From positions 96,136 through 160,135 of the forward strand of contig JBJBDC010000001.1 in assembly GCA_047285535.1 (NCBI GenBank): 64,000 bases of DNA, written 5' to 3'. Source of the DNA: Synechococcus sp. GTDB taxonomy: Bacteria > Cyanobacteriota > Cyanobacteriia > PCC-6307 > Cyanobiaceae. The translations under genes and the position numbers were made by a program. This document shows positions 28,067 to 54,757 of the stretch, piece by piece (within the stretch, counting starts at the first letter, position 1; each line of letters starts with the position of its first letter). The notes under the pieces are model-generated. The model was given only the letters and a program-made list of their open reading frames with translations. It made no database searches and was not told where the DNA came from.

Positions 28067-28449
28067 AGCCGAGGCCGATGACGGCGGAGCCAGTGATGCA
28101 TGATTTCAAAGCAGCTCGGCGTTGGGATTTCACCAGACCAACGATCGAGAAGCTCTCGGCCCATCGGCGTGAGACGAACCCGTTCTGTCAGCCCTTGTCC
28201 ATCCACTTCCCGACGGAGTACGCCCACCTGGATCAGCCAGATCAGATGATCTTCCGTTCTGGAGCGATTTAGAGGCTTGCTGCTCATGGTCATCCAGTTT
28301 TTTTGGCTGCTGAGCTGGGTGCTGCTCATGGCCTCGTGCTCAAGTGCCTCATAAAACGAACGGCGAAATGGAAGGCAGCAGATGGCCTGCTGTGCCCGAT
28401 TCACCGCACGTGCCGATATCAGGGTTGTGGATGTTGTGGATAACGTCAC
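28063..28449 (-). CDS. Npun_F0494-type conserved cyanobacterial protein; start uncertain
   Basis: [18 protein letters not shown] motif; abuts cobQ. Confidence 0.8.
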
Positions 28450-28582
28450 GACCTTGTCGATTTGTGCTTCATTCTCCTCTCGCTTTGCTCTGGGCGTGGC
28501 GGGCAACGCCGCTGTGATGGATGGGCGCGCCCGTTTTGAACGGGATCGTCATCAAAATGATGGGATTGCTTGCTTGCTTGCT

Positions 28583-29221
28583 GTGTTGCTGTTGGCTTCC
28601 GCTTCCCCGGCGCGGCGTCGTCTGCTGGAGCAGGCTCATCTTCTTCATCAGGTGATGGTGAGTGGGGTGGATGAAGATCAGATTCATCATGCGAATCCTG
28701 CGCAGTTGGTGCAGCTTTTGGCTGAGGCCAAGGCTTCAGCCGTGAAGCTGAAACTGGATCAGCGCTCTGAGGTCGCTGCGTCCATTACGGCGGTTCTCGG
28801 TTGTGATTCAGTGCTGGAATTTGAAGGAGAGGTGTTTGGCAAGCCACTCAATCGGGACGAGGCGGTCCGGCGTTGGCGGCGCATGCGAGGGGAATGGGGT
28901 CAGTTGCATACGGGCCATTGTTTGTTGCATGGCCCTTCTTTGCTTTCGGAAGACAGAGGAGATCTAAAGAAGCAGCTCATCACCTGTGTCACGACGCGTG
29001 TGCTGTTTGCCAATCTCACCGATAGCGAGGTTGAGGCTTACGTGGCTTCAGGGGAGCCTCTGCAATGTGCGGGTGGGTTTGCCCTCGAGGGGCGTGGTGG
29101 CTGCTGCGTCGAACAAGTAGAGGGTTGTTACTCCAATGTGATTGGTCTCAGCCTGCCGTTGTTGCGTCGTTGGTTGTCTTCCCTTGACTGTGGGTTGTCA
29201 TTTTTCTCTGGCCGTAGCTAA
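28583..29221 (+). CDS. maf: Maf family nucleoside triphosphate pyrophosphatase (GTG start at 28583)
   Basis: [31 protein letters not shown]. Confidence 0.92.
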
Positions 29222-29249
29222 GTCACAAATAGGTTTATCGACGTGCACC

Positions 29250-29504
29250 ATGACCCGCTTGCTTGGCCGCTGCTTTTCCTTATTAATCCTGACGGCTGGT
29301 GTGGCGCCCGCCTTTGCCTTTGAACCCCTGCAAAAATCCTTCAGCACGACTCCCGTAGAGGAATCAATCGATATCAGCGCCGAGCAGGTGCATTTCTCAT
29401 CAGATGACCTAAAGCGTTCTCAGACCTCATCGGCTAGTCCTGTTCCTCCTGGTGAGAAGGGCAGGGCACCGAAGGGATATTCCGTGTTGGATGTGGGTTT
29501 CTGA
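29250..29504 (+). CDS. Small secreted protein
   Basis: MTRLLGRCFSLLILTAGVAPAFA signal peptide (AxA); ends YSVLDVGF. Confidence 0.6.
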   Translation: MTRLLGRCFSLLILTAGVAPAFAFEPLQKSFSTTPVEESIDISAEQVHFSSDDLKRSQTSSASPVPPGEKGRAPKGYSVLDVGF

Positions 29505-29574
29505 GCGTTTATCAGCGAACCCCGGTCATTGTTATGACCTTCAACCTCATCACCTCTAACCCCACAAAGCGCTC

Positions 29575-30507
29575 ATGGCGTTGCTATGGCTTTGGTTAGG
29601 CGCCGTTGGCTTGGGGCTGAGCCTTAGCGGTTGCCGGCCAGGGAGTGAAACCTCTCACGTGGAACCCTCCACTGTGGTCGGTGCTGGAGCCACGTTCCCA
29701 GCTCCGTTGTATCAACGCTGGTTTAGTCATCTTCGGGTTCGTCAGGGCCTCAGCCTGGGATATGACCCGGTGGGCTCCGAAGATGGGGAACACCAGCTTC
29801 TGGCTGGGATCGTGGACTTCGCAGGCACTGAGCTCGATGATCACACCGGCCTCTTGCTTGGTTTGCGTAGCGACCGATGGCTGCGCATTCCCGTGACGGC
29901 TGGGGCCGTTGCCATTGCTTATAACCACCCTGGCTGCGAGCTCTCCCTGACCCGTGAGCAGTTGCGGCTGATTGTCTCTGAGCAGATTGACGATTTCGGT
30001 CAACTTGGCTGTGCCAAACAACCGATCACTTTGTTCGTGCGTCAGAACGGCTCAGGCACAACGGCGCATCTGCGCCGTTACCTGAACGCTACTGCTCAGG
30101 TCTGGCATCACCCCAGGGCTTTGCGCGTGAAGAGCAATGAGGCGATGGCCACAGCCCTGCTGCAGCGACCTGGGTCGATTGGCTACCTCAACACCGTATT
30201 TCTCAATGGCCGTCGCAGCTTGCAGGTGGCTTCTCTGGAGACGGATCAAGGCTCGTTTGCGTTTCCTGAGCGGGCGCTTGAGATTGAGGGTCCTGATCAT
30301 TCCAGAGTTAGATATCCACTGACTGCAGTCAGTTGGATGGTGATGCGCCGCAAGGGGTTGGCAGACAAGGCTGCGGTGTTGAGAGAGGCCATTGCTTACG
30401 GCCTTTCTGCAGAAGGACAAGCTGCTGCCTTGGGCCTTGGTTATCTCCCCTTGCCTGAGGCTCTTTTGGAGCACGCACGGTTGCAACTCGAGGCTTTGCA
30501 GCCATGA
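29575..30507 (+). CDS. Divergent PstS-like substrate-binding lipoprotein
   Basis: LSG-C lipobox, GAGATFPAPLYQRW, AVAIAYNHPGC, RQNGSGTT, GSIGY. Confidence 0.85.
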   Translation: MALLWLWLGAVGLGLSLSGCRPGSETSHVEPSTVVGAGATFPAPLYQRWFSHLRVRQGLSLGYDPVGSEDGEHQLLAGIVDFAGTELDDHTGLLLGLRSDRWLRIPVTAGAVAIAYNHPGCELSLTREQLRLIVSEQIDDFGQLGCAKQPITLFVRQNGSGTTAHLRRYLNATAQVWHHPRALRVKSNEAMATALLQRPGSIGYLNTVFLNGRRSLQVASLETDQGSFAFPERALEIEGPDHSRVRYPLTAVSWMVMRRKGLADKAAVLREAIAYGLSAEGQAAALGLGYLPLPEALLEHARLQLEALQP

Positions 30508-31244
30508 GAGTTCGTGTTCCCCTCAAGCTTTCAGCGCAAGCCATCCGAGCGAAGGAGCATCACTTCCCGATGTTTCTGCTCACGGCGCTGTTGCCGATTG
30601 TGATGTTCCCCGTGGCTCGATTGGATGGATTCCTGTTCCAGCGGATAGCTCTTCCCTTGTCGGTCACGTTGCTGGTGTTGGAGTCCCTGCGGGCCATGCC
30701 GTCCTGGGTGGCTCAATTGGGCCCCATTCGCGTCAATGGGATCTACTGCTGCCTCGGTTACATCTCAGTGGTTGCGGTGTGGCTTCCTTTGCTGCCTTGG
30801 CAGAAGCTTCCCTTCGCTCTACAAATCATTTTGTTGGGCCTGCGGGCTGTCTTTTATCTGCTCACTGCAATCCGCATCGTTCAGGTGCTGGCCAATTGCG
30901 AGCGTGTGTCTGGGAAAACTCTGAGTCTGGGTGCCGCTGGCTATGTGCACCTCGGTTTGACGGCGGGTTTGCTGGCCACGGTGTTGCAGATGGCAGACCC
31001 TGACAGCTTCAATCTCGGTGCTGTTCCAGTGCAGGAATCCTTGGCTGCACGGTTGTCGTACTTTTCGTTCGTTACCTTGGGAAGCCTCGGTTATGGAGAT
31101 GTGGTACCAGCCAGTCCCATCGGGGAATCTTTCGCCGTTTTGCTGAGTCTCAGCAGCACGTTGTATCTCAGCTTGTTGATTGGTTTACTGCTGAGTCGCT
31201 TTATTACCTCAAGGGAAGACGAGATGCAGGAGAGACAGCAATGA
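30504..31244 (+). CDS. Potassium-channel family (Ion_trans_2-like) membrane protein 1
   Basis: YFSFVTLGSLGYGDVVP pore loop flanked by TM helices; ATGA overlap with the upstream gene. Confidence 0.85.
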   Translation: MRVRVPLKLSAQAIRAKEHHFPMFLLTALLPIVMFPVARLDGFLFQRIALPLSVTLLVLESLRAMPSWVAQLGPIRVNGIYCCLGYISVVAVWLPLLPWQKLPFALQIILLGLRAVFYLLTAIRIVQVLANCERVSGKTLSLGAAGYVHLGLTAGLLATVLQMADPDSFNLGAVPVQESLAARLSYFSFVTLGSLGYGDVVPASPIGESFAVLLSLSSTLYLSLLIGLLLSRFITSREDEMQERQQ

Positions 31245-31954
31245 GCACGTGTTCATTGGCATTGCGTCTGCAGAAATTAGAACCCTGGTTTTATCAGTTT
31301 TTGCTTGCAACCCTGCTGCCTCTCTTGGTGATGCCTTTCACCAACCTTGATGGCAACGTGATTCAACGGGTGCTGTTGCCTCTGAGCACGTTGTGGATGG
31401 TGGTGGTGTCAGTGCGGATTGTGCCCAGGGATCTGTTGTTTATTGGCCGTTGGAAACCCTTTGCTCTCTACAGGCCCCTGGCTTTGTTGTGTGTTGTGGT
31501 GATGTGGCTGCCTTCTCTGCTCGGGCATCACACGTCGCTGACGCTGCATTGGCCGGTCCTGACAATCATTTGCAGCTTTTACCTGGTTACGGCCGTTGCC
31601 ATTGTGCTGATGCTGGCCAAGGTGGGACGCGTGAATGAACCCGTGCTTTGCCTCGGTGCTGCCGGTTATATCCACCTTGGTTTGACTGGCGGTCAGTTGG
31701 CGACAGCCTTGGAAGTGTTGCAGCCAGGCACCTTCAGCCTTGGCTTGATGTTGCCCGGTGAGGAACTGGTGGAGCGTTTGAGCTATTTCTCATTCGTTAC
31801 CCTTGGAACCCAGGGGTATGGAGACGTCCTGCCGTCGACGGCTACGGCAGAGAGTTTTGTGGTGTTGCTCAGTGTTTCAGCAACTTTGTACGTCACATTG
31901 ATGATCGGCTTGCTGGTGAGCCGTTATCTGCAAACACGAAAAATTGAAATTTAG
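31241..31954 (+). CDS. Potassium-channel family (Ion_trans_2-like) membrane protein 2, paralog of the preceding gene
   Basis: YFSFVTLGTQGYGDVLP pore loop; shares LGAAGYxHLGLT with protein 1; ATGA overlap. Confidence 0.85.
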   Translation: MSTCSLALRLQKLEPWFYQFLLATLLPLLVMPFTNLDGNVIQRVLLPLSTLWMVVVSVRIVPRDLLFIGRWKPFALYRPLALLCVVVMWLPSLLGHHTSLTLHWPVLTIICSFYLVTAVAIVLMLAKVGRVNEPVLCLGAAGYIHLGLTGGQLATALEVLQPGTFSLGLMLPGEELVERLSYFSFVTLGTQGYGDVLPSTATAESFVVLLSVSATLYVTLMIGLLVSRYLQTRKIEI

Positions 31955-32045
31955 AAAATTTAGAGTATTGATGGCTTGTTTAAATTAAAGAACCATTTTT
32001 TCAGCACTTTGGAACTGATTGGGCATGAATTTTACTCTTATCTCC

Positions 32046-35000
32046 TTAAGTATTTAATAGACTTAAATCCTGATCTTGCGTACTGTTGTCAGGTAATGGT
32101 GCTGCAGTTTGACTTGTGTCGCTGAGATCAGGTGGAGCCATGACATCATCATCGGTTTGCTGAGGTGATGCAAATGCATCCTCCATGGAAGTGACTGGTA
32201 CGTCGCTGGGATCTTGAGGGAGTGGTGTTAGCGCAGCATCGCCGCTGAGACTGCTTTCATCTGCAGAATTGGTTGATGTGTCTTGTCCATTCAGGGCGGC
32301 TATCGCATCGGCATCGAGTTGTTGCAGATCACTGATGGCATCAGCCAGGCTGTGCCCATCGATTGCGGGAGGGCTTTGAGTTGCATCGCTAAGGACAGAA
32401 TCAAGCTGCCCAGGTTTTGATTCCGAAGCGGAGCTGGACGTTTGAGCCTGGATGGTTGCCTGGAGATCTTTCTGGGTGTCGGCATCCAGCCCGGAGACAT
32501 CAAGTTGCAGAGATGGCGCATTACCGTTTTGTGGATCGGTAATCGTTTCCAGAATGTCGCCTTGATCGGTGTGGATGGTTCGCGTGATCAGTTGCGAACC
32601 GTCATCTTGAGTGCTCTGACTAAGATCAACATCATCATGGTCTGTTTTCAGTCCAAGAGAGATCAAGGCAGCCAATGTGGCTTCTGTATCGCTATCTGCT
32701 TGGGCCGATGCCAAGGCATCATTAGCAATGACTGAAATGTCTGCTGTGAATCCATTTTGATCAGGTTCATCATGTTGCGTTTGGCTGGGTGTGACATTCG
32801 TATTGAATTTTGGAAGAGTGAAGTTGACAGATTTGGTGTCACCATCGGCGTCCTTGATGCTCAATGTTAGGTCTAAATTGCGGCCAATTGAAACTCCTGG
32901 ATCGGCCTTGAAATCAATGGTTCCATTGTGACTGCCTGAGCTCAAAACAGTATTCCCTGTGTTTATGGTAAAGGTGCCAAGGCCATTTATTTTGATTTCA
33001 AATTCACCATTTCCCAGATCCTTAACGTTGCTCGTATTTTGATTGCCGCCAAAAGTGGCCGCGAATGCTTGAACAGGTGAATGCCCGCCTGTGCCTAGAA
33101 GAGTGCTTTTTTGCTCAAGAGTAAACTCAACTACTCCGTTATTCTGTAAGCTGGTTGCTGCAAGATCATCGTCACTGCCAGGGTCAAAATTAAAATCAAG
33201 GTGTACGTCTACATTTTGAAAACTTTGTTGAACAGCGTGTTGAATTTGCTGAGAAAGACTGCCATCTAAAGTGTCGTGCGAATTTACTTGTTCAAATGAG
33301 CTGCCATCTGGAAGACTGCCTTTGAAGAGGGACTGTAGTTGACTTCCAATTGAATTGTTGGTCCTATCTACGATGCCAACACCTATGACGTTCGGAGTTT
33401 CGTGGCCGACTTGTTGGTCTAGCGTTTTTAGTGCCTGGTCGAGGTTATGCGATAATTGGGCACCTTGGCTGTTAAAACCGCTTGACATTATTGGTGTGAT
33501 TTCATTATTTGGCCCTGAGCTTTTATTATTTTCTATGCTGGTAATAGTAATCCCGCTCGCTTCATTTGGCGTAAATACTAAGGGGTTGGCTTCTATGGGA
33601 TTGGGATGATGATGATGGGGGTGATTGATATTCGGATCAATCACCTTGGGGAACCCGAGCCAGCCAATAATGTCACCATTGTTATCTCGTACTGCATGAC
33701 TATTGGAATAACCGTGCCCCCTGGTCCCTAGGGGATTGTTGTGGTCATTAATCATTCCATCTATTTGGGCACGCGTAAGCTTCTGTTCATGCTGAATGCC
33801 CGCACTATCTGTATACGTAATTTTAAGTTCACTAGTGGCTTTGTTTCTTGAATTCCAGCCGCTTATGTTATTTAATCCGTATTGATGTTGCCCTTCGTTG
33901 TAAGTTGTAAGTACGTAGCTGTTGCTAGAGATCATGTCTTGACCTTTGGATGTCTCTCCATCTGTCATTATTACCATATTCGTGTCGGTTTTGATTTCAG
34001 CTCCAGATGGTGTGTGGTGTTGATCGGAAATATTGCTTTGCTGCCAGCTTGTTGTTATGTTTTGTGCGGCTTTCCATGCCTCTGTGTGATTTGTGCCGGA
34101 TATTTTTACGTTGTGTAAGAGATTATTTATGCTTGCTAGGATGTGAGGCCTTCCGTAATTTGTGTCGTCTATGGTTACGGATTGTGTTTGTGCGCTGGCT
34201 CCAAAGATGGCTGCGCCAAGATGTACGTTTCCTGGTGTGTGTCCTGCTAAAGGTTCTAGCTTCCAATCGTTTAAGTCTGTGAGGCCATTTTGAGACGTAG
34301 TAACTTTGTATCCTGCATTCTCGAACGCCTGTTTGATGAGATGTGCGGAGGCTAATAACTGCTGATGGATTTTCGAATGAGTATTTGCGTTATCAGGGTC
34401 TTGATGGCCATTGCTCCAGCCCATTGAACCGCTGTAATCGAGCACAAGCCCAATATTCTGATGAGCATCAAAGATTGTTGTTGTAGTAATCGTTGTTGTG
34501 CCTGTTGATGGAGGGGTTGAAGTTTGAGGGTGCTGTGTGGTGCTGACGCTTGCATTCCCCATTGAGATGCTGGGCCCTGAATCTTGAAAGGCAAAGATGC
34601 CTGAGGAAGCATCAATGGATGTGGAAGCGGAATCACCATCTTGATCGGTGATGGAGGCTGTAATTTTTAAGGTATTTGGTAAAGCTGTAAGGAGAGTTTG
34701 TTCGTTATTGCTGCTGGTGTTGTCTTGCCAGATGGGCTTGATTTGATCAAGAACGAGATTGTTTTTTCCATCAATAGTGATGGTGAAGAGATCCTCAGAC
34801 CCATCGGACTTTCCGCCTGATGGATAGCCGTGAATCACGCCATTTGAATCTCTGTGGAGAAGGATTTCAGGCCCTTGAATGGGACCACCGCTTGGATTCA
34901 GTGCGTGTAGACCGGAGTTTGCGTCTTGTGCGGAGAGATCGAGTGAATAGGCGATGGACTGTGTGCCATCGGCGCCAGGTGTGAAAGCAGAAGAGAAGAG

Positions 35001-38000
35001 AGAGGAGAGGGAAGTGGCGGCATTAACGTTGAGAGTGTCGTCATCGGTGACGAGAGGAGAGAGTGTGCCGACTTTGGAGGGATCAACGGATGGCCCTGAA
35101 TCTTGAAAGGCAAAGATGCCTGAGGAAGCATCAATGGATGTGGAAGCGGAATCACCATCTTGATCGGTGATGGAGGCTGTAATTTTTAAGGTATTTGGTA
35201 AAGCTGTAAGGAGAGTTTGTTCGTTATTGCTGCTGGTGTTGTCTTGCCAGATGGGCTTGATTTGATCAAGAACGAGATTGTTTTTTCCATCAATAGTGAT
35301 GGTGAAGAGATCCTCAGACCCATCGGACTTTCCGCCTGATGGATAGCCGTGAATCACGCCATTTGAATCTCTGTGGAGAAGGATTTCAGGCCCTTGAATG
35401 GGACCACCGCTTGGATTCAGTGCGTGTAGACCGGAGTTTGCGTCTTGTGCGGAGAGATCGAGTGAATAGGCGATGGACTGTGTGCCATCGGCGCCAGGTG
35501 TGAAAGCAGAAGAGAAGAGAGAGGAGAGGGAAGTGGCGGCATTAACGTTGAGAGTGTCGTCATCGGTGACGAGAGGAGAGAGTGTGCCGACTTTGGAGGG
35601 ATCAACGGATGGCCCTGAATCTTGAAAGGCAAAGATGCCTGAGGAAGCATCAATGGATGTGGAAGCGGAATCACCATCTTGATCGGTGATGGAGGCTGTA
35701 ATTTTTAAGGTATTTGGTAAAGCTGTAAGGAGAGTTTGTTCGTTATTGCTGCTGGTGTTGTCTTGCCAGATGGGCTTGATTTGATCAAGAACGAGATTGT
35801 TTTTTCCATCAATAGTGATGGTGAAGAGATCCTCAGACCCATCGGACTTTCCGCCTGATGGATAGCCGTGAATCACGCCATTTGAATCTCTGTGGAGAAG
35901 GATTTCAGGCCCTTGAATGGGACCACCGCTTGGATTCAGTGCGTGTAGACCGGAGTTTGCGTCTTGTGCGGAGAGATCGAGTGAATAGGCGATGGACTGT
36001 GTGCCATCGGCGCCAGGTGTGAAAGCAGAAGAGAAGAGAGAGGAGAGGGAAGTGGCGGCATTAACGTTGAGAGTGTCGTCATCGGTGACGAGAGGAGAGA
36101 GTGTGCCGACTTTGGAGGGATCAACGGATGGCCCTGAATCTTGAAAGGCAAAGATGCCTGAGGAAGCATCAATGGATGTGGAAGCGGAATCACCATCTTG
36201 ATCGGTGATGGAGGCTGTAATTTTTAAGGTATTTGGTAAAGCTGTAAGGAGAGTTTGTTCGTTATTGCTGCTGGTGTTGTCTTGCCAGATGGGCTTGATT
36301 TGATCAAGAACGAGATTGTTTTTTCCATCAATAGTGATGGTGAAGAGATCCTCAGACCCATCGGACTTTCCGCCTGATGGATAGCCGTGAATCACGCCAT
36401 TTGAATCTCTGTGGAGAAGGATTTCAGGCCCTTGAATGGGACCACCGCTTGGATTCAGTGCGTGTAGACCGGAGTTTGCGTCTTGTGCGGAGAGATCGAG
36501 TGAATAGGCGATGGACTGTGTGCCATCGGCGCCAGGTGTGAAAGCAGAAGAGAAGAGAGAGGAGAGGGAAGTGGCGGCATTAACGTTGAGAGTGTCGTCA
36601 TCGGTGACGAGAGGAGAGAGTGTGCCGACTTTGGAGGGATCAACGGATGGCCCTGAATCTTGAAAGGCAAAGATGCCTGAGGAAGCATCAATGGATGTGG
36701 AAGCGGAATCACCATCTTGATCGGTGATGGAGGCTGTAATTTTTAAGGTATTTGGTAAAGCTGTAAGGAGAGTTTGTTCGTTATTGCTGCTGGTGTTGTC
36801 TTGCCAGATGGGCTTGATTTGATCAAGAACGAGATTGTTTTTTCCATCAATAGTGATGGTGAAGAGATCCTCAGACCCATCGGACTTTCCGCCTGATGGA
36901 TAGCCGTGAATCACGCCATTTGAATCTCTGTGGAGAAGGATTTCAGGCCCTTGAATGGGACCACCGCTTGGATTCAGTGCGTGTAGACCGGAGTTTGCGT
37001 CTTGTGCGGAGAGATCGAGTGAATAGGCGATGGACTGTGTGCCATCGGCGCCAGGTGTGAAAGCAGAAGAGAAGAGAGAGGAGAGGGAAGTGGCGGCATT
37101 AACGTTGAGAGTGTCGTCATCGGTGACGAGAGGAGAGAGTGTGCCGACTTTGGAGGGATCAACGGATGGCCCTGAATCTTGAAAGGCAAAGATGCATGAG
37201 GAAGCATCAATGGATGTGGAAGCGGAATCACCATCTTGATCGGTGATGGAGGCTGTAATTTTTAAGGTATTTGGTAAAGCTGTAAGGAGAGTTTGTTCGT
37301 TATTGCTGCTGGTGTTGTCTTGCCAGATGGGCTTGATTTGATCAAGAACGAGATTGTTTTTTCCATCAATAGTGATGGTGAAGAGATCCTCAGACCCATC
37401 GGACTTTCCGCCTGATGGATAGCCGTGAATCACGCCATTTGAATCTCTGTGGAGAAGGATTTCAGGCCCTTGAATGGGACCACCGCTTGGATTCAGTGCG
37501 TGTAGACCGGAGTTTGCGTCTTGTGCGGAGAGATCGAGTGAATAGGCGATGGACTGTGTGCCATCGGCGCCAGGTGTGAAAGCAGAAGAGAAGAGAGAGG
37601 AGAGGGAAGTGGCGGCATTAACGTTGAGAGTGTCGTCATCGGTGACGAGAGGAGAGAGTGTGCCGACTTTGGAGGGATCAACGCTTGGAGCGGTGTCATT
37701 GATGAGGAAAGCGCCAGAGATATCGAGGCTGTTGCTAGCGGAGGCGTGATCGCCATCGGCATCGGTGATGGTGTCAGTGCGTGTGATGCTGAGGACGTTG
37801 TTGTTGAAGGAGAGTTGATCGCCTGTGCCTGATTTGCTGGGGTCTGAATGTTGTAGATCCTGAGAGGAAGAGAAAGTGGCTTGGCCGGATGTTGGATCGA
37901 GAGTGATTTGAAGAGCGTTGGATCCGTTTGGGTTAGGAGAGTTTGAGTTGCCAACAAGCCCGACGACGTTGTCTCCGGATTGGAAGAGGAAGATGTGATT

Positions 38001-41000
38001 GCCGTTGTGATCCTGGAGTCCAGAATCAACGCCATTGTGATTTAAAGAGAAAGAGAATGCGGTTGTGAGGGAGGCATTTTGATCGACGGCATTGGAGTTT
38101 CCAGTGGAGAAATTGGAGGAGAAGTTATGGGAAGCAGCGCCATTGATGCCGCCTTGTTCAGTGACAACAAAGTCAGGAATTGTGCCTGTGGTGGCAGGTG
38201 GAGTAATGGATGGAGCGGTGTCATTGATGAGGAAAGCGCCAGAGATATCGAGGCTGTTGCTAGCGGAGGCGTGATCGCCATCGGCATCGGTGATGGTGTC
38301 AGTGCGTGTGATGCTGAGGACGTTGTTGTTGAAGGAGAGTTGATCGCCTGTGCCTGATTTGCTGGGGTCTGAATGTTGTAGATCCTGAGAGGAAGAGAAA
38401 GTGGCTTGGCCGGATGTTGGATCGAGAGTGATTTGAAGAGCGTTGGATCCGTTTGGGTTAGGAGAGTTTGAGTTGCCAACAAGCCCGACGACGTTGTCTC
38501 CGGATTGGAAGAGGAAGATGTGATTGCCGTTGTGATCCTGGAGTCCAGAATCAACGCCATTGTGATTTAAAGAGAAAGAGAATGCGGTTGTGAGGGAGGC
38601 ATTTTGATCGACGGCATTGGAGTTTCCAGTGGAGAAATTGGAGGAGAAGTTATGGGAAGCAGCGCCATTGATGCCGCCTTGTTCAGTGACAACAAAGTCA
38701 GGAATTGTGCCTGTGGTGGCAGGTGGAGTAATGGATGGAGCGGTGTCATTGATGAGGAAAGCGCCAGAGATATCGAGGCTGTTGCTAGCGGAGGCGTGAT
38801 CGCCATCGGCATCGGTGATGGTGTCAGTGCGTGTGATGCTGAGGACGTTGTTGTTGAAGGAGAGTTGATCGCCTGTGCCTGATTTGCTGGGGTCTGAATG
38901 TTGTAGATCCTGAGAGGAAGAGAAAGTGGCTTGGCCGGATGTTGGATCGAGAGTGATTTGAAGAGCGTTGGATCCGTTTGGGTTAGGAGAGTTTGAGTTG
39001 CCAACAAGCCCGACGACGTTGTCTCCGGATTGGAAGAGGAAGATGTGATTGCCGTTGTGATCCTGGAGTCCAGAATCAACGCCATTGTGATTTAAAGAGA
39101 AAGAGAATGCGGTTGTGAGGGAGGCATTTTGATCGACGGCATTGGAGTTTCCAGTGGAGAAATTGGAGGAGAAGTTATGGGAAGCAGCGCCATTGATGCC
39201 GCCTTGTTCAGTGACAACAAAGTCAGGAATTGTGCCTGTGGTGGCAGGTGGAGTAATGGATGGAGCGGTGTCATTGATGAGGAAAGCGCCAGAGATATCG
39301 AGGCTGTTGCTAGCGGAGGCGTGATCGCCATCGGCATCGGTGATGGTGTCAGTGCGTGTGATGCTGAGGACGTTGTTGTTGAAGGAGAGTTGATCGCCTG
39401 TGCCTGATTTGCTGGGGTCTGAATGTTGTAGATCCTGAGAGGAAGAGAAAGTGGCTTGGCCGGATGTTGGATCGAGAGTGATTTGAAGAGCGTTGGATCC
39501 GTTTGGGTTAGGAGAGTTTGAGTTGCCAACAAGCCCGACGACGTTGTCTCCGGATTGGAAGAGGAAGATGTGATTGCCGTTGTGATCCTGGAGTCCAGAA
39601 TCAACGCCATTGTGATTTAAAGAGAAAGAGAATGCGGTTGTGAGGGAGGCATTTTGATCGACGGCATTGGAGTTTCCAGTGGAGAAATTGGAGGAGAAGT
39701 TATGGGAAGCAGCGCCATTGATGCCGCCTTGTTCAGTGACAACAAAGTCAGGAATTGTGCCTGTGGTGGCAGGTGGAGTAATGGATGGAGCGGTGTCATT
39801 GATGAGGAAAGCGCCAGAGATATCGAGGCTGTTGCTAGCGGAGGCGTGATCGCCATCGGCATCGGTGATGGTGTCAGTGCGTGTGATGCTGAGGACGTTG
39901 TTGTTGAAGGAGAGTTGATCGCCTGTGCCTGATTTGCTGGGGTCTGAATGTTGTAGATCCTGAGAGGAAGAGAAAGTGGCTTGGCCGGATGTTGGATCGA
40001 GAGTGATTTGAAGAGCGTTGGATCCGTTTGGGTTAGGAGAGTTTGAGTTGCCAACAAGCCCGACGACGTTGTCTCCGGATTGGAAGAGGAAGATGTGATT
40101 GCCGTTGTGATCCTGGAGTCCAGAATCAACGCCATTGTGATTTAAAGAGAAAGAGAATGCGGTTGTGAGGGAGGCATTTTGATCGACGGCATTGGAGTTT
40201 CCAGTGGAGAAATTGGAGGAGAAGTTATGGGAAGCAGCGCCATTGATGCCGCCTTGTTCAGTGACAACAAAGTCAGGAATTGTGCCTGTGGTGGCAGGTG
40301 GAGTAATGGATGGAGCGGTGTCATTGATGAGGAAAGCGCCAGAGATATCGAGGCTGTTGCTAGCGGAGGCGTGATCGCCATCGGCATCGGTGATGGTGTC
40401 AGTGCGTGTGATGCTGAGGACGTTGTTGTTGAAGGAGAGTTGATCGCCTGTGCCTGATTTGCTGGGGTCTGAATGTTGTAGATCCTGAGAGGAAGAGAAA
40501 GTGGCTTGGCCGGATGTTGGATCGAGAGTGATTTGAAGAGCGTTGGATCCGTTTGGGTTAGGAGAGTTTGAGTTGCCAACAAGCCCGACGACGTTGTCTC
40601 CGGATTGGAAGAGGAAGATGTGATTGCCGTTGTGATCCTGGAGTCCAGAATCAACGCCATTGTGATTTAAAGAGAAAGAGAATGCGGTTGTGAGGGAGGC
40701 ATTTTGATCGACGGCATTGGAGTTTCCAGTGGAGAAATTGGAGGAGAAGTTATGGGAAGCAGCGCCATTGATGCCGCCTTGTTCAGTGACAACAAAGTCA
40801 GGAATTGTGCCTGTGGTGGCAGGTGGAGTAATGGATGGAGCGGTGTCATTGATGAGGAAAGCGCCAGAGATATCGAGGCTGTTGCTAGCGGAGGCGTGAT
40901 CGCCATCGGCATCGGTGATGGTGTCAGTGCGTGTGATGCTGAGGACGTTGTTGTTGAAGGAGAGTTGATCGCCTGTGCCTGATTTGCTGGGGTCTGAATG

Positions 41001-44000
41001 TTGTAGATCCTGAGAGGAAGAGAAAGTGGCTTGGCCGGATGTTGGATCGAGAGTGATTTGAAGAGCGTTGGATCCGTTTGGGTTAGGAGAGTTTGAGTTG
41101 CCAACAAGCCCGACGACGTTGTCTCCGGATTGGAAGAGGAAGATGTGATTGCCGTTGTGATCCTGGAGTCCAGAATCAACGCCATTGTGATTTAAAGAGA
41201 AAGAGAATGCGGTTGTGAGGGAGGCATTTTGATCGACGGCATTGGAGTTTCCAGTGGAGAAATTGGAGGAGAAGTTATGGGAAGCAGCGCCATTGATGCC
41301 GCCTTGTTCAGTGACAACAAAGTCAGGAATTGTGCCTGTGGTGGCAGGTGGAGTAATGGATGGAGCGGTGTCATTGATGAGGAAAGCGCCAGAGATATCG
41401 AGGCTGTTGCTAGCGGAGGCGTGATCGCCATCGGCATCGGTGATGGTGTCAGTGCGTGTGATGCTGAGGACGTTGTTGTTGAAGGAGAGTTGATCGCCTG
41501 TGCCTGATTTGCTGGGGTCTGAATGTTGTAGATCCTGAGAGGAAGAGAAAGTGGCTTGGCCGGATGTTGGATCGAGAGTGATTTGAAGAGCGTTGGATCC
41601 GTTTGGGTTAGGAGAGTTTGAGTTGCCAACAAGCCCGACGACGTTGTCTCCGGATTGGAAGAGGAAGATGTGATTGCCGTTGTGATCCTGGAGTCCAGAA
41701 TCAACGCCATTGTGATTTAAAGAGAAAGAGAATGCGGTTGTGAGGGAGGCATTTTGATCGACGGCATTGGAGTTTCCAGTGGAGAAATTGGAGGAGAAGT
41801 TATGGGAAGCAGCGCCATTGATGCCGCCTTGTTCAGTGACAACAAAGTCAGGAATTGTGCCTGTGGTGGCAGGTGGAGTAATGGATGGAGCGGTGTCATT
41901 GATGAGGAAAGCGCCAGAGATATCGAGGCTGTTGCTAGCGGAGGCGTGATCGCCATCGGCATCGGTGATGGTGTCAGTGCGTGTGATGCTGAGGACGTTG
42001 TTGTTGAAGGAGAGTTGATCGCCTGTGCCTGATTTGCTGGGGTCTGAATGTTGTAGATCCTGAGAGGAAGAGAAAGTGGCTTGGCCGGATGTTGGATCGA
42101 GAGTGATTTGAAGAGCGTTGGATCCGTTTGGGTTAGGAGAGTTTGAGTTGCCAACAAGCCCGACGACGTTGTCTCCGGATTGGAAGAGGAAGATGTGATT
42201 GCCGTTGTGATCCTGGAGTCCAGAATCAACGCCATTGTGATTTAAAGAGAAAGAGAATGCGGTTGTGAGGGAGGCATTTTGATCGACGGCATTGGAGTTT
42301 CCAGTGGAGAAATTGGAGGAGAAGTTATGGGAAGCAGCGCCATTGATGCCGCCTTGTTCAGTGACAACAAAGTCAGGAATTGTGCCTGTGGTGGCAGGTG
42401 GAGTAATGGATGGAGCGGTGTCATTGATGAGGAAAGCGCCAGAGATATCGAGGCTGTTGCTAGCGGAGGCGTGATCGCCATCGGCATCGGTGATGGTGTC
42501 AGTGCGTGTGATGCTGAGGACGTTGTTGTTGAAGGAGAGTTGATCGCCTGTGCCTGATTTGCTGGGGTCTGAATGTTGTAGATCCTGAGAGGAAGAGAAA
42601 GTGGCTTGGCCGGATGTTGGATCGAGAGTGATTTGAAGAGCGTTGGATCCGTTTGGGTTAGGAGAGTTTGAGTTGCCAACAAGCCCGACGACGTTGTCTC
42701 CGGATTGGAAGAGGAAGATGTGATTGCCGTTGTGATCCTGGAGTCCAGAATCAACGCCATTGTGATTTAAAGAGAAAGAGAATGCGGTTGTGAGGGAGGC
42801 ATTTTGATCGACGGCATTGGAGTTTCCAGTGGAGAAATTGGAGGAGAAGTTATGGGAAGCAGCGCCATTGATGCCGCCTTGTTCAGTGACAACAAAGTCA
42901 GGAATTGTGCCTGTGGTGGCAGGTGGAGTAATGGATGGAGCGGTGTCATTGATGAGGAAAGCGCCAGAGATATCGAGGCTGTTGCTAGCGGAGGCGTGAT
43001 CGCCATCGGCATCGGTGATGGTGTCAGTGCGTGTGATGCTGAGGACGTTGTTGTTGAAGGAGAGTTGATCGCCTGTGCCTGATTTGCTGGGGTCTGAATG
43101 TTGTAGATCCTGAGAGGAAGAGAAAGTGGCTTGGCCGGATGTTGGATCGAGAGTGATTTGAAGAGCGTTGGATCCGTTTGGGTTAGGAGAGTTTGAGTTG
43201 CCAACAAGCCCGACGACGTTGTCTCCGGATTGGAAGAGGAAGATGTGATTGCCGTTGTGATCCTGGAGTCCAGAATCAACGCCATTGTGATTTAAAGAGA
43301 AAGAGAATGCGGTTGTGAGGGAGGCATTTTGATCGACGGCATTGGAGTTTCCAGTGGAGAAATTGGAGGAGAAGTTATGGGAAGCAGCGCCATTGATGCC
43401 GCCTTGTTCAGTGACAACAAAGTCAGGAATTGTGCCTGTGGTGGCAGGTGGAGTAATGGATGGAGCGGTGTCATTGATGAGGAAAGCGCCAGAGATATCG
43501 AGGCTGTTGCTAGCGGAGGCGTGATCGCCATCGGCATCGGTGATGGTGTCAGTGCGTGTGATGCTGAGGACGTTGTTGTTGAAGGAGAGTTGATCGCCTG
43601 TGCCTGATTTGCTGGGGTCTGAATGTTGTAGATCCTGAGAGGAAGAGAAAGTGGCTTGGCCGGATGTTGGATCGAGAGTGATTTGAAGAGCGTTGGATCC
43701 GTTTGGGTTAGGAGAGTTTGAGTTGCCAACAAGCCCGACGACGTTGTCTCCGGATTGGAAGAGGAAGATGTGATTGCCGTTGTGATCCTGGAGTCCAGAA
43801 TCAACGCCATTGTGATTTAAAGAGAAAGAGAATGCGGTTGTGAGGGAGGCATTTTGATCGACGGCATTGGAGTTTCCAGTGGAGAAATTGGAGGAGAAGT
43901 TATGGGAAGCAGCGCCATTGATGCCGCCTTGTTCAGTGACAACAAAGTCAGGAATTGTGCCTGTGGTGGCAGGTGGAGTAATGGATGGAGCGGTGTCATT

Positions 44001-47000
44001 GATGAGGAAAGCGCCAGAGATATCGAGGCTGTTGCTAGCGGAGGCGTGATCGCCATCGGCATCGGTGATGGTGTCAGTGCGTGTGATGCTGAGGACGTTG
44101 TTGTTGAAGGAGAGTTGATCGCCTGTGCCTGATTTGCTGGGGTCTGAATGTTGTAGATCCTGAGAGGAAGAGAAAGTGGCTTGGCCGGATGTTGGATCGA
44201 GAGTGATTTGAAGAGCGTTGGATCCGTTTGGGTTAGGAGAGTTTGAGTTGCCAACAAGCCCGACGACGTTGTCTCCGGATTGGAAGAGGAAGATGTGATT
44301 GCCGTTGTGATCCTGGAGTCCAGAATCAACGCCATTGTGATTTAAAGAGAAAGAGAATGCGGTTGTGAGGGAGGCATTTTGATCGACGGCATTGGAGTTT
44401 CCAGTGGAGAAATTGGAGGAGAAGTTATGGGAAGCAGCGCCATTGATGCCGCCTTGTTCAGTGACAACAAAGTCAGGAATTGTGCCTGTGGTGGCAGGTG
44501 GAGTAATGGATGGAGCGGTGTCATTGATGAGGAAAGCGCCAGAGATATCGAGGCTGTTGCTAGCGGAGGCGTGATCGCCATCGGCATCGGTGATGGTGTC
44601 AGTGCGTGTGATGCTGAGGACGTTGTTGTTGAAGGAGAGTTGATCGCCTGTGCCTGATTTGCTGGGGTCTGAATGTTGTAGATCCTGAGAGGAAGAGAAA
44701 GTGGCTTGGCCGGATGTTGGATCGAGAGTGATTTGAAGAGCGTTGGATCCGTTTGGGTTAGGAGAGTTTGAGTTGCCAACAAGCCCGACGACGTTGTCTC
44801 CGGATTGGAAGAGGAAGATGTGATTGCCGTTGTGATCCTGGAGTCCAGAATCAACGCCATTGTGATTTAAAGAGAAAGAGAATGCGGTTGTGAGGGAGGC
44901 ATTTTGATCGACGGCATTGGAGTTTCCAGTGGAGAAATTGGAGGAGAAGTTATGGGAAGCAGCGCCATTGATGCCGCCTTGTTCAGTGACAACAAAGTCA
45001 GGAATTGTGCCTGTGGTGGCAGGTGGAGTAATGGATGGAGCGGTGTCATTGATGAGGAAAGCGCCAGAGATATCGAGGCTGTTGCTAGCGGAGGCGTGAT
45101 CGCCATCGGCATCGGTGATGGTGTCAGTGCGTGTGATGCTGAGGACGTTGTTGTTGAAGGAGAGTTGATCGCCTGTGCCTGATTTGCTGGGGTCTGAATG
45201 TTGTAGATCCTGAGAGGAAGAGAAAGTGGCTTGGCCGGATGTTGGATCGAGAGTGATTTGAAGAGCGTTGGATCCGTTTGGGTTAGGAGAGTTTGAGTTG
45301 CCAACAAGCCCGACGACGTTGTCTCCGGATTGGAAGAGGAAGATGTGATTGCCGTTGTGATCCTGGAGTCCAGAATCAACGCCATTGTGATTTAAAGAGA
45401 AAGAGAATGCGGTTGTGAGGGAGGCATTTTGATCGACGGCATTGGAGTTTCCAGTGGAGAAATTGGAGGAGAAGTTATGGGAAGCAGCGCCATTGATGCC
45501 GCCTTGTTCAGTGACAACAAAGTCAGGAATTGTGCCTGTGGTGGCAGGTGGAGTAATGGATGGAGCGGTGTCATTGATGAGGAAAGCGCCAGAGATATCG
45601 AGGCTGTTGCTAGCGGAGGCGTGATCGCCATCGGCATCGGTGATGGTGTCAGTGCGTGTGATGCTGAGGACGTTGTTGTTGAAGGAGAGTTGATCGCCTG
45701 TGCCTGATTTGCTGGGGTCTGAATGTTGTAGATCCTGAGAGGAAGAGAAAGTGGCTTGGCCGGATGTTGGATCGAGAGTGATTTGAAGAGCGTTGGATCC
45801 GTTTGGGTTAGGAGAGTTTGAGTTGCCAACAAGCCCGACGACGTTGTCTCCGGATTGGAAGAGGAAGATGTGATTGCCGTTGTGATCCTGGAGTCCAGAA
45901 TCAACGCCATTGTGATTTAAAGAGAAAGAGAATGCGGTTGTGAGGGAGGCATTTTGATCGACGGCATTGGAGTTTCCAGTGGAGAAATTGGAGGAGAAGT
46001 TATGGGAAGCAGCGCCATTGATGCCGCCTTGTTCAGTGACAACAAAGTCAGGAATTGTGCCTGTGGTGGCAGGTGGAGTAATGGATGGAGCGGTGTCATT
46101 GATGAGGAAAGCGCCAGAGATATCGAGGCTGTTGCTAGCGGAGGCGTGATCGCCATCGGCATCGGTGATGGTGTCAGTGCGTGTGATGCTGAGGACGTTG
46201 TTGTTGAAGGAGAGTTGATCGCCTGTGCCTGATTTGCTGGGGTCTGAATGTTGTAGATCCTGAGAGGAAGAGAAAGTGGCTTGGCCGGATGTTGGATCGA
46301 GAGTGATTTGAAGAGCGTTGGATCCGTTTGGGTTAGGAGAGTTTGAGTTGCCAACAAGCCCGACGACGTTGTCTCCGGATTGGAAGAGGAAGATGTGATT
46401 GCCGTTGTGATCCTGGAGTCCAGAATCAACGCCATTGTGATTTAAAGAGAAAGAGAATGCGGTTGTGAGGGAGGCATTTTGATCGACGGCATTGGAGTTT
46501 CCAGTGGAGAAATTGGAGGAGAAGTTATGGGAAGCAGCGCCATTGATGCCGCCTTGTTCAGTGACAACAAAGTCAGGAATTGTGCCTGTGGTGGCAGGTG
46601 GAGTAATGGATGGAGCGGTGTCATTGATGAGGAAAGCGCCAGAGATATCGAGGCTGTTGCTAGCGGAGGCGTGATCGCCATCGGCATCGGTGATGGTGTC
46701 AGTGCGTGTGATGCTGAGGACGTTGTTGTTGAAGGAGAGTTGATCGCCTGTGCCTGATTTGCTGGGGTCTGAATGTTGTAGATCCTGAGAGGAAGAGAAA
46801 GTGGCTTGGCCGGATGTTGGATCGAGAGTGATTTGAAGAGCGTTGGATCCGTTTGGGTTAGGAGAGTTTGAGTTGCCAACAAGCCCGACGACGTTGTCTC
46901 CGGATTGGAAGAGGAAGATGTGATTGCCGTTGTGATCCTGGAGTCCAGAATCAACGCCATTGTGATTTAAAGAGAAAGAGAATGCGGTTGTGAGGGAGGC

Positions 47001-50000
47001 ATTTTGATCGACGGCATTGGAGTTTCCAGTGGAGAAATTGGAGGAGAAGTTATGGGAAGCAGCGCCATTGATGCCGCCTTGTTCAGTGACAACAAAGTCA
47101 GGAATTGTGCCTGTGGTGGCAGGTGGAGTAATGGATGGAGCGGTGTCATTGATGAGGAAAGCGCCAGAGATATCGAGGCTGTTGCTAGCGGAGGCGTGAT
47201 CGCCATCGGCATCGGTGATGGTGTCAGTGCGTGTGATGCTGAGGACGTTGTTGTTGAAGGAGAGTTGATCGCCTGTGCCTGATTTGCTGGGGTCTGAATG
47301 TTGTAGATCCTGAGAGGAAGAGAAAGTGGCTTGGCCGGATGTTGGATCGAGAGTGATTTGAAGAGCGTTGGATCCGTTTGGGTTAGGAGAGTTTGAGTTG
47401 CCAACAAGCCCGACGACGTTGTCTCCGGATTGGAAGAGGAAGATGTGATTGCCGTTGTGATCCTGGAGTCCAGAATCAACGCCATTGTGATTTAAAGAGA
47501 AAGAGAATGCGGTTGTGAGGGAGGCATTTTGATCGACGGCATTGGAGTTTCCAGTGGAGAAATTGGAGGAGAAGTTATGGGAAGCAGCGCCATTGATGCC
47601 GCCTTGTTCAGTGACAACAAAGTCAGGAATTGTGCCTGTGGTGGCAGGTGGAGTAATGGATGGAGCGGTGTCATTGATGAGGAAAGCGCCAGAGATATCG
47701 AGGCTGTTGCTAGCGGAGGCGTGATCGCCATCGGCATCGGTGATGGTGTCAGTGCGTGTGATGCTGAGGACGTTGTTGTTGAAGGAGAGTTGATCGCCTG
47801 TGCCTGATTTGCTGGGGTCTGAATGTTGTAGATCCTGAGAGGAAGAGAAAGTGGCTTGGCCGGATGTTGGATCGAGAGTGATTTGAAGAGCGTTGGATCC
47901 GTTTGGGTTAGGAGAGTTTGAGTTGCCAACAAGCCCGACGACGTTGTCTCCGGATTGGAAGAGGAAGATGTGATTGCCGTTGTGATCCTGGAGTCCAGAA
48001 TCAACGCCATTGTGATTTAAAGAGAAAGAGAATGCGGTTGTGAGGGAGGCATTTTGATCGACGGCATTGGAGTTTCCAGTGGAGAAATTGGAGGAGAAGT
48101 TATGGGAAGCAGCGCCATTGATGCCGCCTTGTTCAGTGACAACAAAGTCAGGAATTGTGCCTGTGGTGGCAGGTGGAGTAATGGATGGAGCGGTGTCATT
48201 GATGAGGAAAGCGCCAGAGATATCGAGGCTGTTGCTAGCGGAGGCGTGATCGCCATCGGCATCGGTGATGGTGTCAGTGCGTGTGATGCTGAGGACGTTG
48301 TTGTTGAAGGAGAGTTGATCGCCTGTGCCTGATTTGCTGGGGTCTGAATGTTGTAGATCCTGAGAGGAAGAGAAAGTGGCTTGGCCGGATGTTGGATCGA
48401 GAGTGATTTGAAGAGCGTTGGATCCGTTTGGGTTAGGAGAGTTTGAGTTGCCAACAAGCCCGACGACGTTGTCTCCGGATTGGAAGAGGAAGATGTGATT
48501 GCCGTTGTGATCCTGGAGTCCAGAATCAACGCCATTGTGATTTAAAGAGAAAGAGAATGCGGTTGTGAGGGAGGCATTTTGATCGACGGCATTGGAGTTT
48601 CCAGTGGAGAAATTGGAGGAGAAGTTATGGGAAGCAGCGCCATTGATGCCGCCTTGTTCAGTGACAACAAAGTCAGGAATTGTGCCTGTGGTGGCAGGTG
48701 GAGTAATGGATGGAGCGGTGTCATTGATGAGGAAAGCGCCAGAGATATCGAGGCTGTTGCTAGCGGAGGCGTGATCGCCATCGGCATCGGTGATGGTGTC
48801 AGTGCGTGTGATGCTGAGGACGTTGTTGTTGAAGGAGAGTTGATCGCCTGTGCCTGATTTGCTGGGGTCTGAATGTTGTAGATCCTGAGAGGAAGAGAAA
48901 GTGGCTTGGCCGGATGTTGGATCGAGAGTGATTTGAAGAGCGTTGGATCCGTTTGGGTTAGGAGAGTTTGAGTTGCCAACAAGCCCGACGACGTTGTCTC
49001 CGGATTGGAAGAGGAAGATGTGATTGCCGTTGTGATCCTGGAGTCCAGAATCAACGCCATTGTGATTTAAAGAGAAAGAGAATGCGGTTGTGAGGGAGGC
49101 ATTTTGATCGACGGCATTGGAGTTTCCAGTGGAGAAATTGGAGGAGAAGTTATGGGAAGCAGCGCCATTGATGCCGCCTTGTTCAGTGACAACAAAGTCA
49201 GGAATTGTGCCTGTGGTGGCAGGTGGAGTAATGGATGGAGCGTCATCATGAATTGTTAATGATGAGCCAAGATCAATTTGAGCACTTGATGTTGCACTGT
49301 CTCCATCCTTATCTGTAATTGTATCAGTACGTCTTAGCGCTAATAATCCCGGAGATAGATGTATCTCTTCATCAGTATTTGTGGGGTCTGGATGGATGAC
49401 CGCTCGTTCGCTGGTGAAAGTGATGTCTCCTGCTTGAGTTGTGCTGATCTTTAAAGCTTCTTTGCCTGTTTTTTCAAGTATTCCTGTGATATTCCCGTTT
49501 TGAGTATTGACATGCAACAGGATTCGTTCCCCAGTTTCGCTATCGATTAATCCAGAGAACACTCCATCTTTGCTGAGATTCAGCTCATAACTTGTTTTAA
49601 ATGTTCCTGATCCATCGGCGCCGAATTGATGGCTGCCGCTGAAGAGCGAGGCGAAGGATTGCGTGGAGGTGCCGCCGGCTTGCCCGATGAAGGTTTCATC
49701 GACCCCAAGGACTGGGGGATGGCCATTTGTCGTGAGCTGAAGGCTAGGGGCGTCGTCTTTGAAGTGGAACACCTGGCCGATGCCGATTGTTGCCGAAGCA
49801 CTGTCCCCACCAGCGCTCACAGCGGTGCCGGTGATTGTGATCAGGTTTGGGTTCTTGAGTGTGATGCTTTCATCTGTGTTGTTTGGATCGGGGTGAACAA
49901 TCGAGCGCAGTTGATCCAGCTCAATGTTCCCTACTTGATCCGTTGTGATGTGAAAGCCTTCCAGCCCACCAGGCGTCCGTCCGCTGATGCTTCCATCAGA

Positions 50001-54716: not shown

Positions 54717-54757
54717 GTCGTTGTTGATCCCAGCGCCACAAGTTTTCTATCGCTTCT

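Follow-up and report, generated by a model that had tools for sequence, protein, structure and literature searches.

The stretch of DNA considered here (the window, 64,000 nucleotides) corresponds to C1:96136-160135 of the complete, one-contig 3.03 Mb genome of a picocyanobacterium, Synechococcus sp. It harbours a trio of genes, starting at C1:125710 in genome coordinates, which encode a putative phosphate-binding lipoprotein of a divergent PstS subfamily followed by two paralogous channel subunits, A and B. Members of this binding-protein subfamily are found only upstream of the channel pair, a strict one-way linkage which suggests that the activity of the channel may be tied to external phosphate. 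The genes and their junctions are as follows.

29575..30507, forward strand: phosphate-binding lipoprotein of the PstS subfamily, 310 amino acids (Pfam, NCBIfam, structure-relative search, tree and alignment)
30504..30507, forward strand: ATGA stop/start overlap between the binding-protein and channel A genes (sequence)
30504..31244, forward strand: channel subunit A, 246 amino acids (Pfam Ion_trans_2, AlphaFold2 model and alignment)
31241..31244, forward strand: ATGA stop/start overlap between the channel A and channel B genes (sequence)
31241..31954, forward strand: channel subunit B, 237 amino acids, a paralogue of A (Pfam Ion_trans_2 and alignment)

The coordinates of the open reading frames (ORFs) and both overlaps can be read directly in the sequence, bearing out the three-gene chain with ATGA overlaps described in an earlier, sequence-only reading of the locus, and each of the motifs quoted there (GATF, GSE, FAGTE, RQNGSGT, GSLGYGD and GTQGYGD) is found in the ORF translations. 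All three genes are under purifying selection, with ratios of non-synonymous to synonymous divergence (dN/dS) of 0.07–0.30 overall: 0.07–0.23 for channel A, 0.10–0.20 for channel B and 0.16–0.30, at dS up to 2, for the binding protein, whose dN is two to three times that of the channels. A promoter scan returned no promoter-like sites in 28300-32300, and the nine terminator-like sites found in the same interval, against 6.1 ± 2.5 expected, are not informative; a search for RNA runs containing the locus listed none.

The linkage was established in genomes and in metagenomes. Orthologues of the binding-protein subfamily (E ≤ 1e-55) occur in five of 401 genomes of the family (G000, G018, G026, G261 and G375), and in all five the binding-protein gene ends at the base where channel A begins. 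A metagenome scan, from which 80 loci were kept, contributed 15 orthologous loci (50–80% identity); channel A lies directly downstream in 14 of the 14 with readable sequence there, the contig of the fifteenth stopping within the binding-protein gene, whilst none of the 65 loci with a canonical PstS (≤ 38% identity) has a channel match. The junction between the binding protein and channel A is (A/G)TGA in 19/19 loci, ATGA in 16 and GTGA in three. These 19 linked loci include near-duplicates and represent about nine lineages by our grouping of binding-protein identities. The flanks of the linked unit vary: in the genus of the window it lies between maf and the gene for a giant protein, in a second locus (L055) YcgJ-like genes are found upstream, and in a third (L057) other genes again. 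The evidence supports the view that, in the genomic sense, the binding protein is a dedicated partner of the channel.

The first ORF matches PBP_like_2 (PF12849) at 8.9e-20, with 72 bits against a cut-off of 27, and among solved structures it is closest to 7xg7_A (2.1e-33) and 7xg8_A (4.9e-29), ahead of PstS of the E. coli type. The type II periplasmic binding-protein fold of the phosphate class is recognised from PF12849 together with 7xg7_A, which aligns over residues 9–308, albeit with some 25 residues of 7xg7_A lacking a counterpart. The nearest family in NCBIfam is PstS, though the score of 98.9 bits for TIGR00975 falls far under the curated equivalog threshold of 205; the other scores are 53 against 339 for NF008171 and 41.6 against 206.6 for TIGR02136. 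The N-terminus carries a signal peptide and the lipobox LSGC with Cys20.

The subfamily was defined from a search of 5.8 billion proteins and comprises 28 clusters at E ≤ 1.4e-71 (48–100% identity), plus two fragments of 204 residues. Canonical PstS proteins appear in the same search only at E ≥ 1e-48 and with no more than 39% identity, leaving a clean gap between the two groups. Cysteine occupies the lipobox column in 22 of the 28 clusters; five have a hydrophobic N-terminus without it, and one is truncated. In a phylogenetic tree the 13 sampled members are monophyletic, with a Shimodaira–Hasegawa-like approximate likelihood ratio test (SH-aLRT) support of 99 and a stem of 0.67, and the internal branches are several times longer than those of the canonical PstS clades. 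One row of this tree (OWN_pstS_a, 90 residues in the wrong frame, with a branch of 6.98) was disregarded, and the sister grouping of the subfamily with P0199/P0220 is flagged for the risk of long-branch attraction. The phylogeny points to a monophyletic, fast-evolving offshoot of PstS, a class which should not be annotated as an ordinary phosphate-transporter subunit.

According to the available text of PMC13614923, the phosphate ligands of Synechocystis PstS1 are Ser, Phe, Ser, Asp, Arg, Ser, Gly and Thr, and the D-type class of PstS proteins is defined by the Asp ligand. We mapped these positions onto the alignment of the 28 clusters by motif context. The [TS]-F of the GAGA[TS]FP motif, Ser68, Arg156, Ser160 and Gly161 are invariant; the residue following Gly161 is Thr in 25 clusters and Ser in three; and the Asp position is occupied by Asp in 27, the protein of the window alone having Glu. 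The eight-position set (Ser/Thr, Phe, Ser, Asp, Arg, Ser, Gly, Thr) is thus recovered in the subfamily, and since the ligand positions are intact, phosphate is the ligand to be expected from the sequence. It had been claimed earlier that the phosphate-site motifs differ from the typical ones. This did not survive the comparison: GSE is not conserved within the subfamily, RQNGSGT departs from the usual motif at non-ligand positions only, and the differences lie at non-ligand or window-specific sites. The Asp-to-Glu change in the protein of the window is the one feature which might alter affinity.

The genome encodes a canonical phosphate system which is complete without the binding protein of the trio. 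A cluster of pstC, a pstA-like gene and pstB occupies C1:635939-638600, some 510 kb away from the trio, and two canonical PstS paralogues, both lipoproteins, are encoded at C1:836592 and C1:2198777, both far from pstCAB. The earlier remark that pstCAB is missing from the window is therefore true but not telling, because every PstS-type gene in this genome is unlinked to pstCAB. A crude scan for Pho boxes (three 8-base repeats at 11-base spacing) gave the upstream regions of the two canonical pstS genes scores of 18 and 19 out of 24, a level of at least 18 being attained by 35 of 400 background windows; in the regions ahead of the trio, examined in eight loci, the scores were 13–17 and within the background range. 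This hints, though weakly, that the trio is not under Pho control. The possibility that the first gene is simply a Pho-regulated extra pstS was rejected on the same grounds, with the same reservation as to the crudeness of the scan.

Channels A and B match Ion_trans_2 (PF07885) with 32.1 and 27.2 bits, respectively, against a cut-off of 22.5, the match being confined to the pore helix, the filter and the last helix. They are 45% identical to each other over 231 residues (E 6e-57). Neither has an RCK or cNMP domain in Pfam, which agrees with the absence of RCK and cyclic-nucleotide domains noted beforehand. The family profile matches the pores of Kv4, MthK, KvAP and K2P channels in the PDB, with E values down to 3.3e-7, and a look-up in a protein atlas returned generic 'ion channel domain' clusters only. 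An AlphaFold2 model of channel A, built from a 16-row alignment, has a predicted local distance difference test (pLDDT) score of 82.8 and a predicted template modelling (pTM) score of 0.83. Its helices span residues 11-37, 44-64, 77-96, 104-130 and 137-164, followed by a pore helix at 180-192 and a last helix at 205-245; together with Foldseek, the model indicates six helices with a four-helix bundle ahead of the pore. The top Foldseek rows against the PDB are all six-helix K+ channels matched over their whole length (GORK, SKOR, hERG, Eag, MlotiK1, KvAP and Kv4). The best is 9la7_A (E 4.4e-3, probability 1.00), and 3beh_B and 2a0l_A are among the others; as no row reaches E ≤ 0.001, these matches are used only for the consistent six-helix architecture. 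By homology with this superfamily, both termini would be cytoplasmic, with the S1-S2 and S3-S4 loops, the pore loop and the turret on the periplasmic side. In the model these periplasmic segments are short, at about 6 residues for S1-S2, 7 for S3-S4 and 15 for the turret.

The selectivity filters read TLGSLGYGD in channel A and TLGTQGYGD in channel B, against a usual G-[ST]-[LI]-G-Y-G-D among relatives. Both carry the GYG(D) signature with a hydroxyl residue two positions ahead, and the V which usually precedes GYG is replaced by L, I or Q. Alignments A1 and A4 show no variation in G-Y-G-D, the latter alignment holding the 19 channel B rows (L103, which has a stop codon, was left out); in alignment A3, G196, G198 and D199 are invariant and Tyr197 is present in 90% or more of the rows. 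Two different non-canonical filters had been reported for this locus, and both are present as quoted, but the TQ form is confined to four of the 19 rows of A4 (the window, L038, L093 and L094), GS[LI]GYGD being usual. The carbonyl-lined filter of this channel superfamily selects cations, and the filter sequences of A and B would predict selectivity for K+.

In S4 of channel A two arginines, Arg114 and Arg124, lie ten residues apart and are invariant in the A clade. Arginine does not recur at every third position in either subunit, and a role as voltage sensor was rejected, S4 having no arginine ladder. Channel B of the window has arginine at neither of these positions, with Ala at the second; this second arginine is replaced by A, G or V in channel B throughout the subclade which contains all linked loci together with two unlinked ones, L058 and L059; it is kept in every channel A row and in the basal channel B rows. 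This loss dates an asymmetry between the subunits to the recruitment of the binding protein or earlier. Elsewhere in the genome there are three further relatives of the channel family: a 246-residue paralogue with the filter TTVGFGD, which is widespread in the genus; a 239-residue protein (L004, C1:268130-268798, reverse strand) whose filter lacks GYG (STVGTN) and whose matched stretch contains one in-frame TAA, which may be a copy in decay or put to another use; and a Kv-like channel with TTVGYGD.

A channel homologue (E ≤ 1e-25) is present in 55 of the 401 family genomes, mostly as a single copy, with two adjacent copies in ten. A scan of one genome per species gave ten loci in which the two genes lie side by side (L055-L064); both channel genes are kept in every case, and no locus with enough flank was seen to retain one gene without the other. 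In a tree of 41 channel rows, rooted on the single-copy relatives, the A and B sequences form separate clades (SH-aLRT 94 and 90), pointing to one tandem duplication. A search for longer proteins gave three hits, two of which (P0241 and P0242) are single chains of 498 residues in which an A-like half (51% identity to A) precedes a B-like half (53% identity to B), the order being that of the genes. Natural gene fusion is a classic sign of two proteins belonging to one assembly, and given that A and B are always retained as a pair and occur naturally fused, a heteromeric A/B channel is likely. The sequence-only reading had put forward such a heteromer; it is indeed likely, and the trio is a conserved unit, but the pair is older than the binding protein and is also found without it. 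The filters of P0241 and P0242 are TIGTLG[FY]GD and TLGSIGYGD, and the S4 arginine is retained, as in the basal pairs which lack the binding protein. The third hit, P0243 (433 amino acids), is a more distant protein with two pore signatures.

More distant channel relatives provide no parallel for the association, no binding protein being found near them among 50 of 129 flanking ORFs scanned, those nearest each channel. In several of these loci (L074, L078, L080, L084 and L085, and also L071), whose record titles name a delta-proteobacterium or Syntrophobacteraceae, a compact channel of 210-265 residues lies between the gene for a Na+/H+ exchanger and an HlyD/RND efflux set, a recurring but different neighbourhood.

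A number of parallels can be drawn with known systems. The binding protein shares the PBP_like_2 fold with cyanobacterial PstS/SphX (7xg7_A and 7xg8_A, of the D-type) and the lipoprotein signal with the canonical copies of its own genome. The types of ligand residue are common to both, the Asp of the D-type being present in 27/28 subfamily clusters. It differs in scoring below the PstS cut-off, in forming a long-stemmed clade, in always lying upstream of channel genes and, in the copy of the window, in having Glu. The channels resemble the compact prokaryotic six-helix channels KvAP and MlotiK1 (transmembrane part) and the non-swapped plant or animal channels GORK and hERG over their whole length and have the GYGD filter in common with them, yet possess neither an arginine ladder nor a cytoplasmic domain and are encoded as two paralogous subunits. 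The tandem-pore K+ channels (K2P, TOK) likewise carry two channel repeats in one chain, as do P0241 and P0242, although there each repeat is a full six-helix unit, and in the window the two are separate genes.

Cyanobacterial GluR0 consists of a binding domain fused to a K+-channel-like pore, beside its gate, and the trio had been interpreted as a split analogue of this receptor. Both the trio and GluR0, along with the ionotropic glutamate receptors, associate a periplasmic-binding-protein fold with a tetrameric P-loop pore. In the trio the ORFs are separate, no binding domain being inserted covalently around the pore helices, and the binding protein is of the phosphate class; Pfam detects neither a Lig_chan-type pore nor a binding domain of the amino-acid class, the matches being Ion_trans_2/Ion_trans and PBP_like_2/PBP_like. 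The six-helix channel has, by homology, ordinary K+-channel topology, which places its bundle gate across the membrane from the binding protein. With the gate on the cytoplasmic side, away from the binding protein, a GluR0-style pulling on the gate could not apply, and the proposed analogy is not upheld. A precedent is offered by chemoreceptors and sensor kinases, which read free periplasmic binding proteins; these, along with ATP-binding cassette (ABC), tripartite ATP-independent periplasmic (TRAP) and tripartite tricarboxylate (TTT) transporters, are known partners of free binding proteins. The logic proposed below would be the same, in that a membrane protein other than an ABC transporter takes its ligand signal from a free binding protein, the receiver in this case being an ion channel.

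We tentatively favour a reading, to which we assign somewhat less than an even chance, in which a heteromeric A/B K+ channel has the binding protein as its dedicated accessory, sensing phosphate and acting from the periplasmic side. The operon would encode a compact six-helix channel of the K+ type built from alternating A and B subunits, presumably as A2B2, whilst the membrane-tethered periplasmic phosphate-binding protein, recruited from the PstS family, would serve as an accessory subunit. The channel's periplasmic face would be affected differently by the open, empty form of the binding protein and by its closed, phosphate-loaded form. Since the helix-bundle gate is expected to be cytoplasmic, a periplasmic partner would have access only to the outer mouth or filter, or to the outer loops within the first four helices; contact might accordingly involve the outer mouth or turret, or else the S1-S2 and S3-S4 loops, which are short. 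Such contact would make K+ flux, and hence membrane potential and charge balance, track external phosphate, one possible use being the admission of K+ as a counter-ion during phosphate uptake and storage. We infer the phosphate ligand, the K+ selectivity, the A2B2 assembly, the physical contact and the direction of regulation alike. In favour of this reading are the exclusive linkage, the persistence of the unit amid changing flanks, the selection acting on the subfamily and the intact ligand set, along with the complete canonical Pst system, the want of a Pho-box-like score at the trio and the signs of a heteromer. The sharper version, in which the free lipid-anchored binding protein is a detachable sensor gating the heteromeric K+ channel from outside, we regard as doubtful.

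Several observations weigh against the accessory role. Neighbourhood conservation, which the earlier interpretation named as a check, holds from the side of the binding protein, which is never found away from the pair (19/19 readable loci), but not from the side of the channels, for seven of the ten paired genome loci (L058-L064) lack it. The genes found upstream of such pairs include those for an AraC-type regulator, an ATP-grasp protein and FeoB, and five of the ten pair-bearing genomes have no subfamily match whatsoever at E ≤ 1e-55. The occurrence of the pair without the binding protein indicates that the channel does not depend on it. Furthermore, the linked loci all fall within one subclade of the A and B trees (SH-aLRT 97 and 99), a subclade which also contains the unlinked L058 and L059, so that the 19/19 linkage reflects a single recruitment which was subsequently inherited. 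L058 and L059 are nested within the linked clade in the channel A tree (SH-aLRT 81) and sister to it in the channel B tree (87). Where L055 has the binding-protein gene, L058 has an AraC-type regulator and three small ORFs (L055:3535-4584 against L058:3229-5900), and searches for a binding-protein relic upstream of the pairs in L058 and L059 gave only chance-level matches (best E 0.011). The flanks of the two loci, both from Vulcanococcus records, show 70–77% DNA identity.

No docking signature is seen in the channels themselves. The positions which separate linked from unlinked channels number three in A and 14 in B, all of them outside the turret and the S1-S2 and S3-S4 loops, the regions of channel B having been placed by a 4-residue offset from the model of A. 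These periplasmic segments are in any case predicted to be short (about 6, 7 and 15 residues). The canonical PstS copies are also lipoproteins and also unlinked to pstCAB, so neither trait is special to the protein of the trio. A fusion of the binding protein with a channel is absent among the three longer hits, a blank which is weak evidence. A predicted complex of channel A, channel B and the mature binding protein scored 0.13 against a mark of 0.32 and, having been run without controls, is evidence neither way.

The alternative which best survives is co-expression without contact, a real possibility in our judgement, if an unlikely one. On this account the binding protein feeds the distant PstCAB, whilst entry of K+ through the channel balances charge during phosphate uptake or polyphosphate storage. 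A K+ requirement for bacterial phosphate uptake is familiar from the older physiology literature. An unlinked PstS copy would be nothing unusual in a genome in which all PstS-type genes lie apart from pstCAB, and the intact ligand positions, the presence of the pair without the binding protein in other lineages and the failure of any periplasmic-loop residue of the channels to track the binding protein all sit comfortably with it. A PstS which serves PstCAB should, however, at times be found away from the channels, and in 0/19 loci is this so. Nor would such a role lead one to expect a subfamily so far removed from canonical PstS (≤ 39% identity, with a long stem), the loss of about 25 residues present in 7xg7_A, or the lack of a Pho-box-like signal upstream of the trio where the canonical copies have one, crude though that scan was.

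The linkage might instead be nothing but an inherited neighbourhood, a duplicate of pstS having landed once beside the channel pair, to be retained for an unrelated periplasmic role, such as phosphate buffering, or left to drift. The single origin of the linkage, the dN of the binding protein at two to three times that of the channels and the occupation of the slot by other genes in one lineage would all follow. Against this, its dN/dS of 0.16–0.30 denotes purifying selection even at dS values up to 2, the ligand positions are invariant, and the overlapping junction has been preserved in 19/19 loci despite reshuffled flanks. We consider this explanation improbable. That the binding protein passes an anion (phosphate, phosphite or arsenate) to a channel which conducts it, as was also suggested at first, has only gene adjacency to recommend it and is barely credible, given the GYGD P-loop filter and Ion_trans_2 match in both subunits, the whole-length fold matches to K+ channels and the established cation selectivity of a carbonyl-lined filter, which make an implausible path for phosphate.

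As for the accessory role favoured above, the binding protein and the channels are each of a known family, and there are precedents for the logic put forward. The remark that the arrangement was not recognised as described still stands: within the literature covered, no description was found of a PstS-type protein, or of any free binding protein, paired with a K+ channel, although the supplementary tables of picocyanobacterial gene clusters in PMC9361551, which lie outside that scope, may name these genes. The nearest item, as far as its available text goes, is a preprint (10.1101/2021.01.27.428399) in which binding proteins and the pores of glutamate receptors are combined in engineered chimeras. 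What is new here, and the main result, is the exclusive linkage of the subfamily to the channel pair, for which the evidence is genomic. If the sharper version, with the binding protein as a detachable sensor, is true, the module would be a natural two-part ligand-gated K+ channel by which phosphate outside the cell is converted into a K+ current or a change in membrane potential. It would then be the first ion channel known to have a periplasmic binding protein as a separate subunit, and would show in a living organism the unfused state which models of glutamate-receptor origin assume. If the two are physically paired, they would offer a simple bacterial system in which to study how an extracellular ligand controls a K+ channel, and K+ or membrane potential would be linked to the supply of phosphate in phototrophs that abound in aquatic habitats; the pairing would also serve as a natural comparison for the origin of glutamate receptors from a binding protein plus a pore. 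Should there be no physical pairing, the conserved pair of A and B, with its natural fusions, would still represent a prokaryotic heteromeric six-helix channel.

The gene order in the genus of the window is cobQ, a small gene, maf, the trio and then the giant repeat protein. One further feature lies close to the trio:

29250..29504, forward strand: small secreted ORF, 84 amino acids, between maf and the binding-protein gene (tblastn in linked loci)

This ORF, for which Pfam returned no family, encodes a signal peptide and about 60 further residues with a conserved C-terminal G-Y/F-x-V/L-L-N-x-x-F end. Counterparts lie upstream of the binding-protein gene in L038, L093 and L094 (48–51% identity by tblastn), with weaker matches (28–29%, E 8e-5 to 8e-3) in L039, L100-L103 and L055; tblastn found none in L057 or in the pairs without the binding protein. 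This small ORF may belong to the cluster as its fourth gene. Converging on the trio from the other side, at 32046-50804 on the reverse strand, is the gene for a giant protein of 6252 residues made up of near-identical DUF5801 repeats. It is followed on the forward strand, at 50941-56134, by two ABC-transporter genes and an HlyD gene, an arrangement which fits a type I secretion set. Large repeat proteins adjoin the channel pair in L055 and L059 too.

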